This document shows, in pieces, positions 1,689 through 14,215 of a stretch of 15,431 bases of DNA (the first letter of the stretch is position 1; every line of letters begins with the position of its first letter). This stretch comes from Burkholderiales bacterium. GTDB lineage: Bacteria; Pseudomonadota; Gammaproteobacteria; Burkholderiales; Burkholderiaceae_D. Where the stretch lies: positions 1-15,431 of the forward strand of contig JACOUL010000008.1 in NCBI GenBank assembly GCA_016177875.1, in the 5' to 3' direction. The position numbers and the translations under genes were made by a program. The notes below the pieces were generated by a model, which did no database searches, was not told where the DNA came from, and worked only from the letters and a program-made list of their open reading frames with translations.

Positions 1689-2717
1689 ATGCCAGACGAT
1701 TTTCTCATCCATTCTGATTTTTCGCTACGCCAACTGAATACTTTTGGCATTGATGCGAAAGCCCATCGCTATGTGTCTATAGATTCGGTCAATACGCTGC
1801 TGAAAGTCGTCAAAACGACTGAATTTGCGCAATCGGAACGATTTGTTCTGGGCGGGGGAAGCAATATTCTTTTGACTGACGACTTCCCCGGGCTTGTATT
1901 GCACATAGGCATTAAGCAGATTGGGCTGATTGGAGACGATGAGGACACTACCTTCGTGCGCGCCGCTGCAGGAGAAAATTGGCATCAATTTGTCCAGTGG
2001 ACTTTAGCGCATGATTTGTCCGGCTTAGAAAACCTTTCCTTGATTCCGGGTAGCGTCGGTGCTGCACCCATTCAGAATATCGGTGCATACGGTGCGGAAG
2101 TAAAAGACTTTCTGCATAGCGTGACCGTTTTTGATTTGCTTAGCGGAGACATTCGCACCCTTAGTAATGCCGAATGCGGATTCGGCTATCGCGATAGTAT
2201 TTTCAAACGCGAGCTGAAAGGAAGGGCCGTAATTCTCGACGTGACGTTCGCCTTGCCTAAACGCTGGCAGCCCAACTTGCACTATGTGGAATTGGCGCAA
2301 GAGATGAAGGCGCGCGGATTGAATATGCCGACCGCAAGAGAAGTCAGCGATGCCGTCATTGCCATTCGTACTCGCAAGCTTCCCGACCCTGCCATCATCG
2401 GCAATGCCGGCAGCTTTTTTAAGAATCCTATCGTGTCGGCGGTCAAGCGTGAACAGTTGCTTGCGCAATTTCCCCAATTGGTCAGCCACCGTCAGGCTGA
2501 CGGCAGCTATAAATTGGCGGCCGGTTGGCTCATCGATCAGTGCGGCTGGAAAGGCAAGAGCATGGGCGCTGCCGGCGTATATGAGCGTCAGGCTCTGGTC
2601 TTAGTGAATCGAGGCGGCGCAAGCGGTAAAGAAATCGTCGATTTGGCGTGCGCTATCCAGAAGAGTGTGCTCGCGCGTTTCGACGTTTTGTTGGAAGCCG
2701 AGCCGATTATTCTTTAG
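1689..2717 (+). CDS. murB: UDP-N-acetylenolpyruvoylglucosamine reductase
   Basis: 342 aa from the ATG at 1689. The tracked 1680 start is a TTG. It has the FAD-binding MurB N-terminal region (LNTFGIDAKA...LGGGSNILL) and a MurB C-terminal domain. A TATAAT at 1674-1679 sits only about 10 nt before the ATG. Confidence 0.9.
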   Translation: MPDDFLIHSDFSLRQLNTFGIDAKAHRYVSIDSVNTLLKVVKTTEFAQSERFVLGGGSNILLTDDFPGLVLHIGIKQIGLIGDDEDTTFVRAAAGENWHQFVQWTLAHDLSGLENLSLIPGSVGAAPIQNIGAYGAEVKDFLHSVTVFDLLSGDIRTLSNAECGFGYRDSIFKRELKGRAVILDVTFALPKRWQPNLHYVELAQEMKARGLNMPTAREVSDAVIAIRTRKLPDPAIIGNAGSFFKNPIVSAVKREQLLAQFPQLVSHRQADGSYKLAAGWLIDQCGWKGKSMGAAGVYERQALVLVNRGGASGKEIVDLACAIQKSVLARFDVLLEAEPIIL

Positions 2718-2985
2718 AACTCATTTCATCAATACGAGGGCACGCGAAAGTGGTCTGGACGGATGCGGCGCTAGGCGTCATCGCGACGCAAAGGCTGATG
2801 CCTTTGCTAGCGGTGCAACAATGCGATGCGCCGCCCAGACCACTTTCCCGGAGGGTTCGCACCAGAATCGACGCTGGACAGCGTTGGGCTCCTTGCGAAT
2901 ATGCAACGGCTATTCGACGCGTCGCCCGCCTTGCCAGCCCCGATTCTGGAGCGAACGCGAGCCCTCCTATTGATGAAATGAGTTC
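2717..2985. repeat. 269-bp palindromic, highly structured element with perfect 18-bp terminal inverted repeats (MITE-like or structured-RNA leader)
   Basis: GAACTCATTTCATCAATA at 2717-2734 is the exact reverse complement of 2968-2985. The closing stem extends to about 30 bp with 2 mismatches. Inside are nested perfect stems: 2746-2758/2835-2847 (13 bp); 2765-2771/2828-2834; 2779-2784/2823-2828; the GCAAAGGC-UGAU-GCCUUUGC hairpin at 2788-2807; 2864-2872/2941-2949 (9 bp); the hairpins at 2873-2886 and 2899-2917; and a CGACGCGTCG palindrome. It has no coding capacity beyond symmetric shadow ORFs. Confidence 0.6.
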
Positions 2986-3064
2986 TGGTTGCACCACGTC
3001 CAGACATATCGAATCCATTTTGGTGCGAAATCTGGTTTTGCACTAAGGACGGGCATTTCACTTT

Positions 3065-3093
3065 TTACTTATTTTTATTAAAAATCATATAGT
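3065..3093 (+). promoter_or_regulatory. Candidate sigma70-type promoter for the amidase/ABC operon (-35 TTACTT, 17-bp spacer, -10 TATAGT)
   Basis: An AT-rich block at 3050-3125 precedes the operon. TATAGT lies at 3088-3093 and TTACTT at 3065-3070. This is inferred by eye only. Confidence 0.25.
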
Positions 3094-3129
3094 TAAGTAA
3101 AAATTCCAGCGGGCATGATATTCGCTTAA

Positions 3130-3166
3130 CTTGAACACATTCTTGTATTCAAGATCGTATTCAAGG
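3130..3166. promoter_or_regulatory. Candidate operator: three copies of an 8-9 bp half-site overlapping the Shine-Dalgarno/start of the first operon gene
   Basis: CTTGAACA at 3130-3137 is inverted relative to TATTCAAG at 3146-3153 (8-bp arms, 8-bp spacer). A direct repeat GTATTCAAG occurs at 3145-3153 and 3158-3166. The array ends 8 nt before the ATG at 3174. The only regulator in the operon is the GntR/FCD protein encoded at its end. Confidence 0.3.
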
Positions 3167-3173
3167 CGAATTC

Positions 3174-5030
3174 ATGGACGCAATTCCTTCCGTATTAACT
3201 ATTTCTGCTGTGCAAGGCAGCTATTTGAGCGGTAAATATTCGCCGGTCGAATTGCTGGCCAAAGTTTTCGAACGTATCAAGCACGAAAGTCCGGCGGAAA
3301 TTTGGATTGGCCATGCCGATCGTGCGAGTGCGTTGGCGCGTGCCAAGGAATTAGGATTGACGCTTGCCGCGGAAGGCGCCGCTGCGTTTAAGCGCTTTCC
3401 TCTACTCGGTATTCCGTTCGCGGTTAAAGACAATATCGATGTGGCAGGATTGCCCACCTCTGCAGCTTGTCCTGCGTTTGCTTATACGCCGAGTCGCTCG
3501 GCGGAAGCGGTTGATCGTCTGCAAAAAGCAGGGGCGATCGTCGTCGGCAAGACGAATCTCGATCAATTCGCCACCGGTTTAGTAGGCACGCGATCACCTT
3601 ATGGTGCAGTAAAAAATCCATTTAATGCCGACTATATTTCCGGTGGGTCGAGTTCCGGTTCAGCGGCAGCGGTTGCGCATGGCTTTGTCGCATTTTCATT
3701 AGGCACCGATACGGCGGGGTCGGGGCGCGTACCTGCAGGATTTTGCAACTTAGTCGGCATCAAGCCGACGCCAGGTTTGGTCAGTACCCGCGGCGTGGTG
3801 CCGGCTTGCCGCAGCCTGGACTGCATTTCGGTATTTGCGCACGGCGTAGAGGAGGGCTGGCGCGTATTGAGCGCAATGGTGGGGAAAGATCAAGAAGATC
3901 CGTATTCCTATTCGCCTCGCATGCTGCCGCCGCTTGTAAAAAAAGTGCGTATCGGTATTCCGGCGCAACCGGAATTTTTTGGAGATGACGAGGCTCGGAA
4001 GTTGTATGAACACGCAGTGGGCGTGTTGGAGGCTCTGCCTCAAGTGTCAATCGTCCCGTTTGATTTCTCGCCGCTGCACGAAGTCGCACAACTACTGTAT
4101 GACGGCCCTTGGGTGGCTGAACGGCGGGCTGCTTTGGGAACATTTTTTGAGACCAGCTGCACCGATATGGATGCGACGGTGCGTGAAGTGATTCGCCGCG
4201 CCGATGGACAAACCGCAGTTGACGCTTTCAATGGCATTTATCGTCTAGAAGCAGGCAAACGCTTGGCAGAGTCCTTGTTCGCGCAATTCGACATGCTGAC
4301 GGTGCCGACCGCGCCCACGCATTTCAGCATTGCGCAAATTGCAGAACAACCGGTGGCGCGCAACGCACAGCTCGGCCTCTACACCAATTTTGTCAATCTG
4401 CTCGGTATGTGCGCGCTGGCGCTTCCGACAGGTTTTCGCAGCGATGGATTGCCGGCCGGCGTCACGCTGATCGGCCCCGGTGGTGCGGATTATCGGCTTG
4501 CGGAATTTGCACGTGCACTTGAGCCCCTGCTGCACAAGCGCCTCGGCCGAAGTGAACAAGAGCCGCCGCGCAGCGGCAGTCTGACAGCATTGCCCGAAGA
4601 TGAGGCAACGATCGACGTCGCGGTCGTAGGTGCTCACCTGTCCGGTCAATCGCTGAATTGGCAATTGATCGAGCGTGGCGCGCGGCTGGTGCGCAGCGGG
4701 CGCACGGCGAGCCGTTATCGTTTGTACGCATTGCCCGGTACTACGCCGCCCAAACCGGGGTTGATCCGTAGCGACGACGGCGCCGCCGGATGCGCAATCG
4801 AAATCGAAGTATGGCAGATGCCGGTGCGTCAATACGGCAGCTTCGTTGCAGAAATTCCATCTCCCTTGGGCATCGGCAGTCTCGAGTTGGAAGATGGCAG
4901 CAGTGTGCAGGGCTTTCTGTGCGAGGCCTGGGCACTCAAGGATGCACAGGATATTTCCGCTTACGGCGGCTGGCGCGCATTCCGTGCCGACGCCGCCTTT
5001 TCAACTTCACTCAAGAAGGAGCTTTCATGA
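3174..5030 (+). CDS. Amidase-signature family hydrolase with a C-terminal extension domain; allophanate hydrolase (AtzF/DUR1,2-type)-like
   Basis: 618 aa. It has the amidase signature: the Lys in FAVKDNIDVAGLPT and the Gly/Ser-rich GGSSSGSAAAVA with the downstream GTDTAGSGR. An additional C-terminal domain of about 140 aa (VAVVGAHLSGQSLNWQLIERGA...) is typical of allophanate hydrolases rather than plain amidases. No urea carboxylase gene is adjacent. Confidence 0.75.
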   Translation: MDAIPSVLTISAVQGSYLSGKYSPVELLAKVFERIKHESPAEIWIGHADRASALARAKELGLTLAAEGAAAFKRFPLLGIPFAVKDNIDVAGLPTSAACPAFAYTPSRSAEAVDRLQKAGAIVVGKTNLDQFATGLVGTRSPYGAVKNPFNADYISGGSSSGSAAAVAHGFVAFSLGTDTAGSGRVPAGFCNLVGIKPTPGLVSTRGVVPACRSLDCISVFAHGVEEGWRVLSAMVGKDQEDPYSYSPRMLPPLVKKVRIGIPAQPEFFGDDEARKLYEHAVGVLEALPQVSIVPFDFSPLHEVAQLLYDGPWVAERRAALGTFFETSCTDMDATVREVIRRADGQTAVDAFNGIYRLEAGKRLAESLFAQFDMLTVPTAPTHFSIAQIAEQPVARNAQLGLYTNFVNLLGMCALALPTGFRSDGLPAGVTLIGPGGADYRLAEFARALEPLLHKRLGRSEQEPPRSGSLTALPEDEATIDVAVVGAHLSGQSLNWQLIERGARLVRSGRTASRYRLYALPGTTPPKPGLIRSDDGAAGCAIEIEVWQMPVRQYGSFVAEIPSPLGIGSLELEDGSSVQGFLCEAWALKDAQDISAYGGWRAFRADAAFSTSLKKELS

Positions 5031-6640
5031 TTAATTCGCTCTTCAAACGCGCGGCGCTTTGTTCGCTTTTCGGTGCATTGCTGGCAGTTTCCACGCTACC
5101 GGCAAGCGCACAGGATAAGCGCAAGGAGACGCTGATCGTCGCCAACGAAACCGGTCCCAACATGCTAGACGTGCAAGGCGTCGGCGCCAATCGCCCGGCA
5201 TACGCGGTGTCGTGGATGACTTACGACCGCTTAATGACCTTCGGCAAAAAGAAACTGGCCAACGGCATCGTCAGTTACGACTTTTCAAAGCTGGAACCTG
5301 AATTGGCGGAAAGCTGGGAATTCGCGAAGGATGGCATGTCGGTGACCTTCAAGCTGCGCAAAAATGCGAAGTTCCACGATGGCACGCCAGTGACTGCCAA
5401 GGATGTGAAATGGTCGTTCGAACGCGCACTGGCAATGGGCGGCTTTCCGACCTTCCAAATGAAAGCGGCGTCGATTGAAAAACCGGAACAGTTTGAAGTG
5501 GTCGACGCCAACACGTTCCGCGTCAAATTCCTGCGCAAGGATAAGATGACGATGCCGGATCTGGCGGTGCCGACGGCTTCCATTTACAACTCCGAGCTGG
5601 CTAAGAAAAACGCCACACCGGAAGATCCGTGGGCCGGCACTTGGCTGAAGAACAATACTGCAGGCGGCGGTGCATACAAGGTTGAGTCTTATAAGCCCGG
5701 CCAGGAAATCATTTACGTTCGCAACGACGATTGGAAGAGCGGTCCGCTGCCTAAGATCAAGCGCGTCATCCAGCGCGAAGTGCCGTCGGCGGGCAATCGC
5801 CGCGCATTGCTGACCAAAGGCGACATCGACATGAGCTATGACATGCCGCCGAAGGATTTCGCCGAGATGTCGCAAGAGAAGGGCAACGTCAAGGTTTCCA
5901 GCGTGCCGATTGAAAATTCGATGTTCTATCTCGGCATGAACGTGACCAAACCGCCGTTCGACAATATGAAGGTGCGCCAAGCGGTAGCCTATGCCGTGCC
6001 GTATGAGCGTCTCATGCAAAGTGCGGCGTATGGACGCGGCGTGCCTTTATTCGGCGCCAAAAATTCGGCGACCGGCGCCGAATGGCCGGCCGCCACCAAG
6101 TACACGACCGATCTTGCCAAGGCCAAGCAATTGATGAAAGAAGCCGGTTATGAAAACGGTTTCGAAACCACGTTATCGTTCGATCTCGGCCAGGGGACGG
6201 TGTCCGAACCGATCGCCATTCTGGTGCAGGAAGCGCTGGCGCAGTTGAACATCAAGAGCACCATCAATAAGGTGCCGGGTTCCAATTGGCGTGCCGCGAT
6301 GTTAAAGAAGGACATGCCGCTGATGATCAATCGTTTCGGCGGCTGGCTCAACTATCCGGAGTACTTCTTCTTCTGGACGTATCACGGCCAGAACGCGGTA
6401 TTCAACACCATGTCGTACAAGAATCCCGGCGTGGACAAGATGATCGATGCCGCTCGCTTCGAGACCGACAAGCTGTCGTATCAGAGTCAGGTGAAAACCT
6501 TCGTCAATATCGCCTACGAAGAAGTGCCGCGCGTGCCCTTGTTCCAGCCGATGGCCGACGTGGCGATGCAAAAGAATGTGCAAGGCTACACCTACTGGTT
6601 CCACTTGCAGCCCGACTATCGTCAGCTGTCCAAGAACTAA
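5027..6640 (+). CDS. ABC transporter periplasmic substrate-binding protein, family 5 (DppA/OppA/NikA-like)
   Basis: The start is reassigned to the ATG at 5027, with AAGGAG 6 nt upstream and an ATGA overlap with the amidase stop. The tracked 4790 start would lie inside the amidase gene. It has a signal peptide (MINSLFKRAALCSLFGALLAVSTLPASAQD) and a family-5 SBP size of 537 aa. Confidence 0.85.
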   Translation: MINSLFKRAALCSLFGALLAVSTLPASAQDKRKETLIVANETGPNMLDVQGVGANRPAYAVSWMTYDRLMTFGKKKLANGIVSYDFSKLEPELAESWEFAKDGMSVTFKLRKNAKFHDGTPVTAKDVKWSFERALAMGGFPTFQMKAASIEKPEQFEVVDANTFRVKFLRKDKMTMPDLAVPTASIYNSELAKKNATPEDPWAGTWLKNNTAGGGAYKVESYKPGQEIIYVRNDDWKSGPLPKIKRVIQREVPSAGNRRALLTKGDIDMSYDMPPKDFAEMSQEKGNVKVSSVPIENSMFYLGMNVTKPPFDNMKVRQAVAYAVPYERLMQSAAYGRGVPLFGAKNSATGAEWPAATKYTTDLAKAKQLMKEAGYENGFETTLSFDLGQGTVSEPIAILVQEALAQLNIKSTINKVPGSNWRAAMLKKDMPLMINRFGGWLNYPEYFFFWTYHGQNAVFNTMSYKNPGVDKMIDAARFETDKLSYQSQVKTFVNIAYEEVPRVPLFQPMADVAMQKNVQGYTYWFHLQPDYRQLSKN

Positions 6641-12495: not shown

Positions 12496-14151
12496 CTACC
12501 AATACGACCACTGCTGAGTGCTCAATACATAAATTGCCAGCAAGCCATTGGTTACCATATGCGCTATAACGGCATCCCATACTTTGCCTCGAATAAAACG
12601 CGCAACGCCAAAAGCAAGCCCCGCCAGTGCTCCTGCTAGCCAGGCGCTGTGCAAAGCGCCAAAGGCCACAGAAGAAATTATCAGGGGCAACCAAGCCTTA
12701 TGAAATTTTTCTGTGCCGGAGGTTGCCTCGTTTTTTGACAGAACATTGATCAGATAGCCGCGAAAAGCCAGTTCTTCCGCGAGAGGAACGATTAAGGTAG
12801 CGCCAAGCGCACGAATTGCCAGCCATCCTGCGATCAGCAATGGGGAATTATTTTTTAAGTCGGTGGCGAATGCTTCGGTCGTCTCTCCGGACGCCGGCAC
12901 GATACTAATCCACAATAAAAATACGGCAATGCCGATCATCACGGGCGCAACAGCTACCGTCAAACTACCCAAGTTAAAACGCTTCCAGAAAACCCCCAGG
13001 GTTAGGCCGGCAACCGCTATACGCACTGGATAGAGCCAATCAAAGCTTGCAGTAAAGGCTAGGGTGATAAGCGTTGCACATAACAACACCAATTCCGGCA
13101 GCAGCAATACATTGAGCGAATCGATCTCCAGCATCGCGCCGCCTGACTTTCCGCTGAAAAATGGAATGCGTCGCGCCACCAAAATCATGCCGATTGAAAC
13201 GCACAAAAAATAAATCCATCCGGCATGGGAGTGGAATCCTTGAATGGCGATTTCAGGCGAAATAGCGTGCCCGATGCCGACCAGCGAAGCGATGCGAATG
13301 CAGTTGAATATCCACATGAGCAACAGGGCGGCAGGGTAAAGCAACAGGGCATTGGGATATTTCAAATCCTGTCGAAAGGTCAGCGAATACCAGGCAAGAA
13401 ACGCCGTAATCATCGCCATGCCTTCGTAGCCGGAACAGGTAGACGATATCAATACGATGAAATTGCCAATGCCGAGCTCCTTCGTCACCGCATTGGCGAC
13501 GACATCGGCATGAAAAAGCTCAAGAAAAAAACGGGCGACGGCGATCGTCGGTGTGCTGAGAAAATCGTCCCAAGTATTTTGGAAAATCCCATTGATGAAA
13601 TAAATGACGAGGGTAACGCCTAAGGCAAGGAGAAGAGGTATCTTTTCGGATGCGGCAAATTGTCTCCACCATGTTAACGGCGCAATCATGAATAAAGTCG
13701 CGCCGGCTGTCGCGGCCAAGGCAAGCAACAGGGCACCGCTCCAAAATGCTTCGCGATCCGGCGTCGCAAGAGGAAAATGCAATAAGTCATTGGGTAAAAC
13801 GGCGCCGATCACCAGGAGCAATGCAAAAAAGCACAGCAGTTGCGCAGTTAGGTAGCGCATGGCAGGGCGCGTTGCGTGCACTTCAGATAGGGAATGCCAA
13901 ATGTTATTTAGCCGGGCGGTTAGCGCCAATGCAAGCGCAACGCAGAAATAGATAAGATATTGCATGCTGGCGCCTAAATGCGGCGCGTACGCGAGAGAGC
14001 CGTCGTATTGCGCCGAGCGCGGATGTACGAAGAGTGCGACAAACGACGCTTGCATGAGGATAAGCAAAGCGAATAGCGGTAAGCGCAGCTGGAAGTGCCA
14101 TGGCGTCCAGTGCTGCAGCGGTGTGCCGACTTGGCCGTTTTGAGTAGTCAT
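12496..14151 (-). CDS. Exosortase fused to a CPBP (CAAX/Abi-type) intramembrane protease domain; XrtE-like (VPEID-CTERM system) fusion
   Basis: A polytopic N-terminal domain of about 330 aa has the exosortase-type motifs ...STCSGYEGMAM... (Cys) and ...IFNCIRIASL... (Asn-x-x-Arg). The C-terminal domain has all three CPBP motifs: EELAFR, FGALH and HMVTN. The tracked start at 14166 is a GTG inside a hairpin, so I prefer the ATG at 14151. Confidence 0.8.
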   Translation of the reverse strand: MTTQNGQVGTPLQHWTPWHFQLRLPLFALLILMQASFVALFVHPRSAQYDGSLAYAPHLGASMQYLIYFCVALALALTARLNNIWHSLSEVHATRPAMRYLTAQLLCFFALLLVIGAVLPNDLLHFPLATPDREAFWSGALLLALAATAGATLFMIAPLTWWRQFAASEKIPLLLALGVTLVIYFINGIFQNTWDDFLSTPTIAVARFFLELFHADVVANAVTKELGIGNFIVLISSTCSGYEGMAMITAFLAWYSLTFRQDLKYPNALLLYPAALLLMWIFNCIRIASLVGIGHAISPEIAIQGFHSHAGWIYFLCVSIGMILVARRIPFFSGKSGGAMLEIDSLNVLLLPELVLLCATLITLAFTASFDWLYPVRIAVAGLTLGVFWKRFNLGSLTVAVAPVMIGIAVFLLWISIVPASGETTEAFATDLKNNSPLLIAGWLAIRALGATLIVPLAEELAFRGYLINVLSKNEATSGTEKFHKAWLPLIISSVAFGALHSAWLAGALAGLAFGVARFIRGKVWDAVIAHMVTNGLLAIYVLSTQQWSYW

Positions 14152-14163
14152 CGTTGTGGCAAG

Positions 14164-14200
14164 CACAAAAAACAGGGAAGTTCCTTCCCTGTTTTTTGTG
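14164..14200 (-). terminator. Perfect 17-bp-stem hairpin with an internal U6 tract (bidirectional intrinsic-terminator-like) between the precursor gene and the exosortase gene
   Basis: CACAAAAAACAGGGAAG-ttc-CTTCCCTGTTTTTTGTG. The inner GC-rich 8-bp stem CAGGGAAG/CUUCCCUG is followed by UUUUUUGUG in either orientation. It lies 15 nt after the precursor stop and ends 12 nt before the exosortase ATG. Confidence 0.55.
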
Positions 14201-14215
14201 CAAAGCGCGGAAGCC

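Follow-up and report, generated by a model that had tools for sequence, protein, structure and literature searches.

A palindromic element at a murB stop codon very probably represents an undescribed family of TA-targeting MITEs dispersed in Oxalobacteraceae

Introduction

The window analyzed here is a stretch of 15,431 nucleotides from the metagenome-assembled genome (MAG) of a Burkholderiales bacterium (assembly GCA_016177875.1, contig JACOUL010000008.1). In this window the murB gene, which encodes UDP-N-acetylmuramate dehydrogenase, runs directly into a palindrome of 269 bp at positions 2717-2985, and the locus raises the question of what such a palindrome is and how it came to lie flush against a stop codon. 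A first-pass annotation, made from the letters of the window, had left the choice between a selfish palindromic element resembling a MITE (a miniature transposable element with inverted repeats) or a repetitive extragenic palindrome (REP), a large non-coding RNA (ncRNA) of the HEARO, GOLLD or OLE class, and a cis-acting leader of the downstream amidase/ABC-transporter operon, with some preference for the structured RNA. Our analysis shows a multi-copy dispersed family which is non-coding, has invariant 18-nt termini flanked by YTA on the left and TAR on the right, and comprises genome-specific subfamilies as well as truncated and mini derivatives. We conclude that the palindrome at murB is very probably one copy of a MITE not described before, which is dispersed in Oxalobacteraceae, is non-autonomous, targets TA and belongs in kind with the Correia, ERIC and RUP elements, and that the element is atypical for a bacterial MITE in its size, its GC content and its conserved four-way fold.

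The starting point is the pair of perfect 18-bp terminal repeats already seen in the first-pass annotation, which proved exact: GAACTCATTTCATCAATA occupies positions 2717-2734 and its exact reverse complement positions 2968-2985, forming perfect 18-nt terminal inverted repeats (TIRs). These are its only two matches in the window, even with up to three mismatches (chance expectation 0.01), and two matches were reached in none of 200 shuffles.

A Dispersed Repeat Family

The terminal 18-mer was scanned against one genome per species, and the family counts come from the matches listed. At least 117 loci carry it, mostly in Oxalobacteraceae, where it is found in Undibacterium, Herbaspirillum, Herminiimonas, Collimonas, Keguizhuia, Noviherbaspirillum and related MAGs, with at least 12 loci in the genome of Undibacterium hunanense, at least 8 in that of U. 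luofuense and at least 7 in that of Herbaspirillum sp. RV1423. Inverted pairs of the 18-mer lying 34-422 bp apart number 45 among the matches listed, with a mode at 265-267 bp. Because the terminal sequence recurs across many Oxalobacteraceae genomes, the murB palindrome is not a single-copy RNA gene. A family profile built from 18 full-length copies confirmed membership, among the matches listed, in Oxalobacteraceae loci only. The same profile matches the window once, end to end at 2717-2985, with 216 bits on the + strand versus 50 bits on the - strand, scores that give the window copy a clear polarity from the A end to the B end on the + strand.

Further copies came from metagenomes, where a 21-mer specific to the subfamily of the window copy led to five contigs with sibling copies 87-97% identical to the window copy and set between different, TA-bearing flanks. 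The genes found beside other copies include a sulfate permease, a band-7 protein, an AMP-binding enzyme, Dus, histidine kinases and LysR regulators; they belong to unrelated host families, among which only large paralogue families recur. An open reading frame (ORF) of at least 100 codons ends within about 60-90 nt of 48 of the 122 ends among the matches listed. No description of this family turned up in the papers searched, whether by its terminal sequence, under MITEs of the genera concerned or of Burkholderiales, or within a 2024 census of prokaryotic MITEs.

Other matches of the 18-mer, in Cyanobacteria, Bacteroidota and Firmicutes, were rejected as family members, the profile being without a match there, and are due to chance or unrelated to the family. 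In filamentous cyanobacteria (L004, L058, L059, L070, L090, L093, L104, L107, L112 and L117) the 18-mer stands in a conserved context, …TTTCTTTT GAACTCATTTCATCAATATCTAACAT…, which, unmatched by the MITE profile, probably represents either some conserved gene or another repeat. Viral contigs gave just two chance matches, both in AT-rich DNA. In the plasmid collection the element was unmatched, and a 38-nt end gave chance matches only.

Target Site and Organization of the Locus

The flanks of the copies point to a precise target. Among the matches listed, the two bases outside GAACTC are TA at 99 of 128 ends, TA having a background of 3.3% in the same loci, and 20 of the 29 non-TA flanks are CA or TG, each a single transition away from TA. 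At position -3, 80% of the ends have C or T, and the whole context is symmetric (YTA, element, TAR) in AT-rich surroundings, which fits an NTAN target. From these flank statistics we infer a 2-bp TA target-site duplication. A longer duplication of 3 or 4 bp (CTA, or YTAR in the manner of IS5) was considered and discarded: outside TA the two sides do not carry the same bases, and neither do the copies. The window copy itself has TA on its left (2715-2716) and TG on its right (2986-2987). The first-pass annotation reported no evident target-site duplication; this was wrong, the TG being a TA decayed by one base and the duplication evident on comparison with other copies.

The features of the locus are as follows.

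1689..2717, + strand: murB coding sequence, supported by its ORF, MurB Pfam domains and a C-terminus flush with homologues
2715..2716: left TA of the putative target-site duplication, also bases 1-2 of the murB stop codon
2717..2985, + strand: body of the probable MITE, 269 bp, from profile match and alignment
2717..2746, + strand: left terminal inverted repeat, perfect over 18 nt (2717-2734) and imperfect beyond; half of the terminal stem
2743..2850, + strand: arm A, a long imperfect hairpin with apex stem 2788-2795 / 2800-2807; inverted repeats I3, I15 and I18
2847..2855, + strand: central mini-hairpin CCC-GGA-GGG, at the junction of both arms
2855..2956, + strand: arm B, likewise long and imperfectly paired, its apex stem at about 2896-2901 / 2911-2916; inverted repeat I2
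2956..2985, - strand: right terminal inverted repeat, perfect over 18 nt at 2968-2985
2986..2987: putative right copy of the target-site duplication, now TG, that is TA with one transition

The terminal repeat extends imperfectly to 31 nt at 94% (2716-2746 / 2956-2986). The interior is GC-rich and non-coding, as had been noticed on first reading: its GC content is 57-60% versus 36-45% in the DNA just downstream, and the only AT-rich parts of the family are the termini and the target sites. The 269 bp have no protein-coding capacity; their sole ORFs are the mirror-image shadow ORFs that the first-pass annotation had recognized on both strands (2648-3046, 2665-2973, 2707-3018 and 2807-3061), which are by-products of the palindrome. 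No intrinsic terminator was found in 2500-3300 and no promoter inside the element; the only promoter-like site lies downstream of it, at 3064-3093, and the amidase start codon follows the element at a distance of 188 nt.

Far from the element, at 14163-14201, the window holds another perfect inverted repeat, of 18 nt with a 3-nt loop (GCACAAAAAACAGGGAAG / CTTCCCTGTTTTTTGTGC). It has a GC core between an A-run and a T-run, resembles a bidirectional terminator and sits at the upstream end of a 556-aa membrane-protein ORF (12496-14166, - strand).

A Probable Insertion at the Stop Codon of murB

The murB ORF ends at 2717, and the G of its TAG codon (2715-2717) is indeed the first base of the left repeat, as initially described. 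Translated from ATG 1689, the product has 342 aa, is on record and carries MurB Pfam domains; its C-terminus falls in the same final alignment column as those of its homologues, nearly all of which have 342 aa. Because the length and the end of MurB match those of its homologues, it is the native murB stop codon that would have been the insertion target. An exact look-up of MurB from a TTG start returned no record. The form starting at ATG 1689 is recorded on two short contigs only, both ending inside the element. Two independent read-set assemblies with this murB stop 157 nt into the element (L118:2606-2763 and L119:1095-1252, equal to window 2717-2874), near the inter-arm junction, which is the expected behaviour at a repeat. 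The nearest other MurB is 72% identical to that of the source MAG, and for this reason no usable orthologous murB intergenic region, which could serve as an empty site, was found in close relatives; a look-up of the amidase for alternative upstream alleles gave none, the amidase being without a record.

Since the element starts with G, and TA followed by G gives TAG in frame at either end, the protein is left unaltered when a TAA or TAG stop codon takes up the element. At 10 of 122 ends among the matches listed, TA plus G is the exact stop of an ORF with 100 codons or more, and insertion into stop codons is thus recurrent in the family. At murB, the TA of the stop codon would have served as target and TA plus G would have recreated TAG, leaving MurB unchanged; the sequence before insertion may have read ...ATTCTT TAG TTGCACC..., the right TA having later mutated to TG. 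The insertion would have been tolerated because the first G of the element restores TAG.

As to the mechanism, most bacterial MITEs have TIRs and a TA dinucleotide at both ends (PMC2229807), and bacterial MITEs are known for target-site duplications and for transcripts with stable stem-loops (PMC2229807, PMC10969869). A transposase acting in trans would bind the conserved termini, excise the element and paste it into a TA, which would be duplicated in the process. The likeliest type would be IS630/Tc1-mariner-like, because this is the bacterial family that duplicates TA, a TA duplication being the mark of that superfamily (PMC2170065). Once inserted, the element is presumably co-transcribed as the 3' untranslated region (UTR) of murB, where it would adopt a very stable four-way structure. 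It contains no U-tract and is therefore not an intrinsic terminator. The folded 3' UTR could change mRNA decay, or how efficiently translation terminates at the adjoining stop codon. Where REP elements lie near a stop codon, an effect on termination, with lowered expression or tmRNA tagging, has been reported (Liang, Rudd and Deutscher 2015). Effects on mRNA are documented for Correia elements, via RNase III, and for those ERIC elements that lie at the 3' ends of genes (PMC10969869).

Conservation of the Fold

The whole unit is predicted to fold into a terminal stem bearing two long hairpin arms. Among the perfect interior helices listed in the first-pass annotation, those of 13, 9, 8 and 7 bp were found in the window element. 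For the + strand its folding free energy comes to -161.7 kcal/mol (z-score -12.2) and for the - strand to -165.7 (z-score -12.8), and none of 200 shuffles was equally stable. Applied to 18 copies, RNAalifold returned 94 pairs, which make up the terminal stem, the two arms A and B and, between these, a central hairpin of 3 bp (CCC-NNN-GGG). Compensatory double changes that keep the pair occur at 39 of these 94 pairs, 17 of them in helices 2-6 (arm A) and 17 in helices 8-10 (arm B), and positions 19-26 of the left end covary with the right end. Paired cells amount to 97.6% versus 86.5% in column shuffles, and pairs with double changes to 39 versus 24.2 ± 2.0, none of 500 shuffles attaining any of the observed measures; when the partners were slid by 1-3 columns, pairing fell to 33-42%, with at most 11 double-change pairs. 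As pairing and double changes exceed both the shuffled and the slid controls, the fold of the element is under constraint. The covariation supporting the helices, which the first-pass annotation had recommended looking for, is therefore present, and it is not specific to RNA. That annotation had also expected dispersed copies to indicate a MITE and compensatory changes an RNA; as a discriminator this fails, since both are true.

The structural signal does not distinguish the strands. Folding energy averages -148.3 kcal/mol for the A-to-B strand versus -149.6 for the opposite one, and in 18 of 42 copies it is the A-to-B strand that folds more stably. Of the genes that read into a copy, 12 enter at the A end and 21 at the B end, which shows no orientation bias, and G-U and A-C cells are roughly balanced except for one fixed U-G pair. 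In small samples, the private substitutions of single copies break a pair in 6 cases, leave a G-U in 6 and are compensated in none, and the differences between subfamily consensuses are compensated in 13 cases, one-sided in 2 and lost in 2. This hints at a constraint on propagating lineages rather than at each inserted locus. Because compensatory changes between subfamilies maintain the fold, propagation or host tolerance would depend on the folded shape. A search of Rfam over the window returned no family at the gathering threshold, and only chance-level matches with E >2 in 2600-3180 (E up to 10).

In the central hairpin, CCC and GGG are invariant in the 18 copies, with loops reading GGA, GAA or TTC. 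In this loop (alignment columns 136-142, window 2847-2855), Undibacterium-type copies have GGA or GAA, and copies from Herminiimonas, Herbaspirillum and L021 have TTC, the reverse complement of GAA. The exchange of TTC and GAA could reflect an inversion of the tiny palindrome or be a coincidence.

Subfamilies and Derivative Forms

The two ends of the element can be told apart by the sequences …AATAGGGATGAGTGCGAAC… at the A end and …AATAGGGGTGAGATGCGTT… at the B end, and the 18-nt termini are invariant across the 18 aligned copies. Mean identity between copies is 94% within a genome versus 77% between genomes, from which it follows that each lineage has a subfamily of its own that was amplified recently. 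In Keguizhuia, two copies from separate loci of a single genome reach 99.7% identity, and the window copy shares 66-78% identity with all the other copies compared.

Derivatives of several kinds accompany the full-length copies: half elements, forms of 139-232 bp and minis of 33-56 bp which keep both termini and the TA flanks (L013:6058-6091 and L126:191-246). Minis of about 34 nt are found at L085, L088, L089, L091 and L105. In many minis the sequence is that of the B end's first 34 nt, as far as an inverted pseudo-terminus within it, GAACGCATCTCA, which suggests that this pseudo-terminus can act as an alternative end. Long copies of 317-422 bp contain, within their arms, a separate double-hairpin module of 74-82 bp.

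This module reads CCTTGCAGG…two short hairpins…GAATTCCCTGC and is bordered on both sides by CCTTG. It lies in arm A and/or arm B of long copies from several genera (L048:4613-4687, L062:6315-6388 and 6518-6591, L066:1186-1267, L125:157-230 on the - strand; also L046, L122 and L124), its hairpins vary in a compensatory manner, and in the loci examined it was encountered only inside the MITE; the window copy is without it. Another insert of 13-15 nt, CCTCGGCGGCCCC or its reverse complement, occurs at varying positions in arms A and B of copies of 279-296 bp (L003:4249-4543, L111:3136-3430, L037:4765-5060, L074:3409-3688 and L079:1231-1509). Finally, a sister repeat with the variant terminus GAACGCATTTCATCAACA, which includes a mini copy, is present in Herbaspirillum sp. 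RV1423 (L064:3007 on the + strand and about 4790 on the - strand).

Mobilization and Alternative Explanations

Dispersed copies, TA flanks, metagenome siblings and near-identical copies at different loci together support the MITE-like element that was among the proposals of the first-pass annotation. Several observations weigh against it. A search that covered 126 loci and the plasmid collection revealed no autonomous insertion sequence with GAACTCATTTCATCAATA ends and a DDE transposase. In the loci examined no TIR pairs lie 423-3500 bp apart, lone element ends adjoin host genes only, and the clustering of 1020 flanking ORFs returned host paralogue families only and no transposase. Of the source MAG, the 15-kb window was covered, and it holds a single copy. 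With 269 bp and 57-60% GC, the element exceeds typical bacterial MITEs, which are AT-rich and shorter than 200 bp (PMC2229807). A base-exact empty site was not obtained, so that TA as a duplication, and not as a part of the element, rests on the flanks; what comes nearest to such a site is a convergent intergenic region that holds a 33-nt mini copy in L011 and none in the orthologous L015, at only about 75% identity. Finally, conservation of the whole fold, symmetric with respect to the strands, is unaccounted for by a cut-and-paste reaction on duplex DNA.

The last point leaves some room for an additional proposition, which we regard as rather unlikely: that the family is a long-lived, largely vertically inherited repeat population in which the complete four-way-junction fold (terminal stem, two arms and mini-hairpin) is selected. 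If this were true, an enzyme or a host factor would read the folded single strand or an extruded cruciform, not the duplex end; the system would be either a variant of TA-targeting transposition that is specific for structure or, within Oxalobacteraceae, a domesticated partnership resembling that of REPINs and RAYTs, and the second module of 74-82 bp would be one that inserts specifically into the arms of the element. A structure-reading enzyme or REPIN-like partnership is the main rival of the MITE explanation, with a small chance of being right. In its more specific form, to which we give a slim chance, the copies would be a structure-dependent mobile or domesticated repeat population with a REPIN-like lifestyle, whose folded single strand (hairpin or cruciform) would be the substrate of a dedicated enzyme, possibly single-copy and vertically inherited. 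Such a population would explain why the fold is conserved by compensation and why the termini are identical across genera: it would account for the 39 double-change pairs among 94 and the 97.6% of paired cells versus 86.5%, for subfamily differences that are compensated when private changes are not (small sample), for a structural signal equal on both strands, as DNA would give, and for genome-specific subfamilies that nevertheless keep invariant 18-nt ends. Set against this are the TA flanks and the long perfect TIRs, which are the signature of DDE cut-and-paste transposition, HUH/RAYT systems leaving no target duplication. Moreover, no RAYT-like or other recurrent gene was found beside the copies among the flanking ORFs, no genome-wide search for RAYT having been made, and stable folds are common in ordinary MITEs (PMC10969869).

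The strong covariation and the very stable folds could also be read as those of structured ncRNAs or RNA cis-elements, such as 3' UTR stabilizers or RNase III substrates, selected at each locus and using mobility merely as a means of spread. The 48 of 122 ends lying just downstream of gene 3' ends would agree with this, as would the influence of Correia and ERIC elements on mRNA processing (PMC10969869). An RNA function would be hard to reconcile with the lack of orientation bias (12 incoming genes at the A end, 21 at the B end), with mean folding energies alike on both strands, with nearly balanced G-U and A-C cells and with private mutations that go uncompensated; the element matches no Rfam family and has no associated promoter or terminator. 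We hold this explanation to be very improbable, and the large ncRNA of the HEARO, GOLLD or OLE class that was first envisaged is likewise not supported, the element being multi-copy and non-syntenic besides. The proposal of a leader or riboswitch-like regulator of the downstream amidase/ABC-transporter operon draws on position alone, 188 nt upstream of the amidase start codon, and has next to no chance: other copies adjoin unrelated host genes, a distribution that effectively refutes it, the sole promoter-like site (3064-3093) lies downstream of the element, and Rfam gives no match.

Significance

Taking the palindrome as a MITE has practical consequences. Together with its shadow ORFs, the stretch 2717-2985 should be treated as a repeat to be masked, and annotated neither as genes nor as a novel RNA; the element also explains the assembly breaks just after murB. 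For a TA-targeting element that starts with G, gene ends are safe landing sites, because the initial G rebuilds TAG in TAA or TAG stop codons, and the element then joins the 3' UTR. The family also offers a test case for why the folds of MITEs are conserved, be it for propagation, host tolerance or RNA function, and it illustrates that covariation by itself is no proof of an RNA gene.

Comparison with Known Systems

The RUP element of Streptococcus pneumoniae and the MITEs derived from IS630/Tc1-mariner elements share with the window element the TIRs and the insertion at TA (PMC2229807, PMC2170065). For RUP, mobilization in trans by an IS630-family transposase was inferred from the ends and the target (PMC2229807, PMC2170065). 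The difference is that a matching element with similar TIRs, IS630-Spn1, is known for RUP, whereas none with GAACTCATTTCATCAATA ends was found in the loci examined or in the plasmid collection. The ERIC/IRU elements of enterobacteria are likewise imperfect palindromes located in transcribed intergenic regions, often at gene 3' ends, and their RNA fold changes mRNA stability (PMC10969869). They differ in length (127 bp), sequence and host range, and the effect on mRNA is one known for ERIC.

REPINs resemble the window family as palindromic repeat populations with host-specific sequence clusters, in which the fold is preserved despite sequence change. REPINs and REP elements differ in being shorter, in having neither long TIRs nor a TA duplication and in being tied to a RAYT gene flanked by REPs. 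Such elements are recognized as palindromic units of about 20-40 nt, with no TIRs or duplication and with a link to RAYT, whereas long TIRs and TA flanks are present here.

Like the window element, the Correia elements of Neisseria (CREE/NEMIS) do not code for protein, carry TIRs that are long and perfect, have TA at either end, and exist as many dispersed, mostly intergenic copies in a betaproteobacterial lineage, with no cognate transposase known (PMC2229807, PMC10969869). Their copies are co-transcribed with neighbouring genes and form long hairpins, to which the window element can be likened (PMC2229807, PMC10969869). RNase III cleavage, IHF binding and promoter activity are traits of the Correia elements. 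Correia elements differ in having an unrelated sequence of about 100-155 bp and a single hairpin, whereas the window element has 269 bp, a GC-rich interior and two arms with a central mini-hairpin that are kept by compensatory changes.

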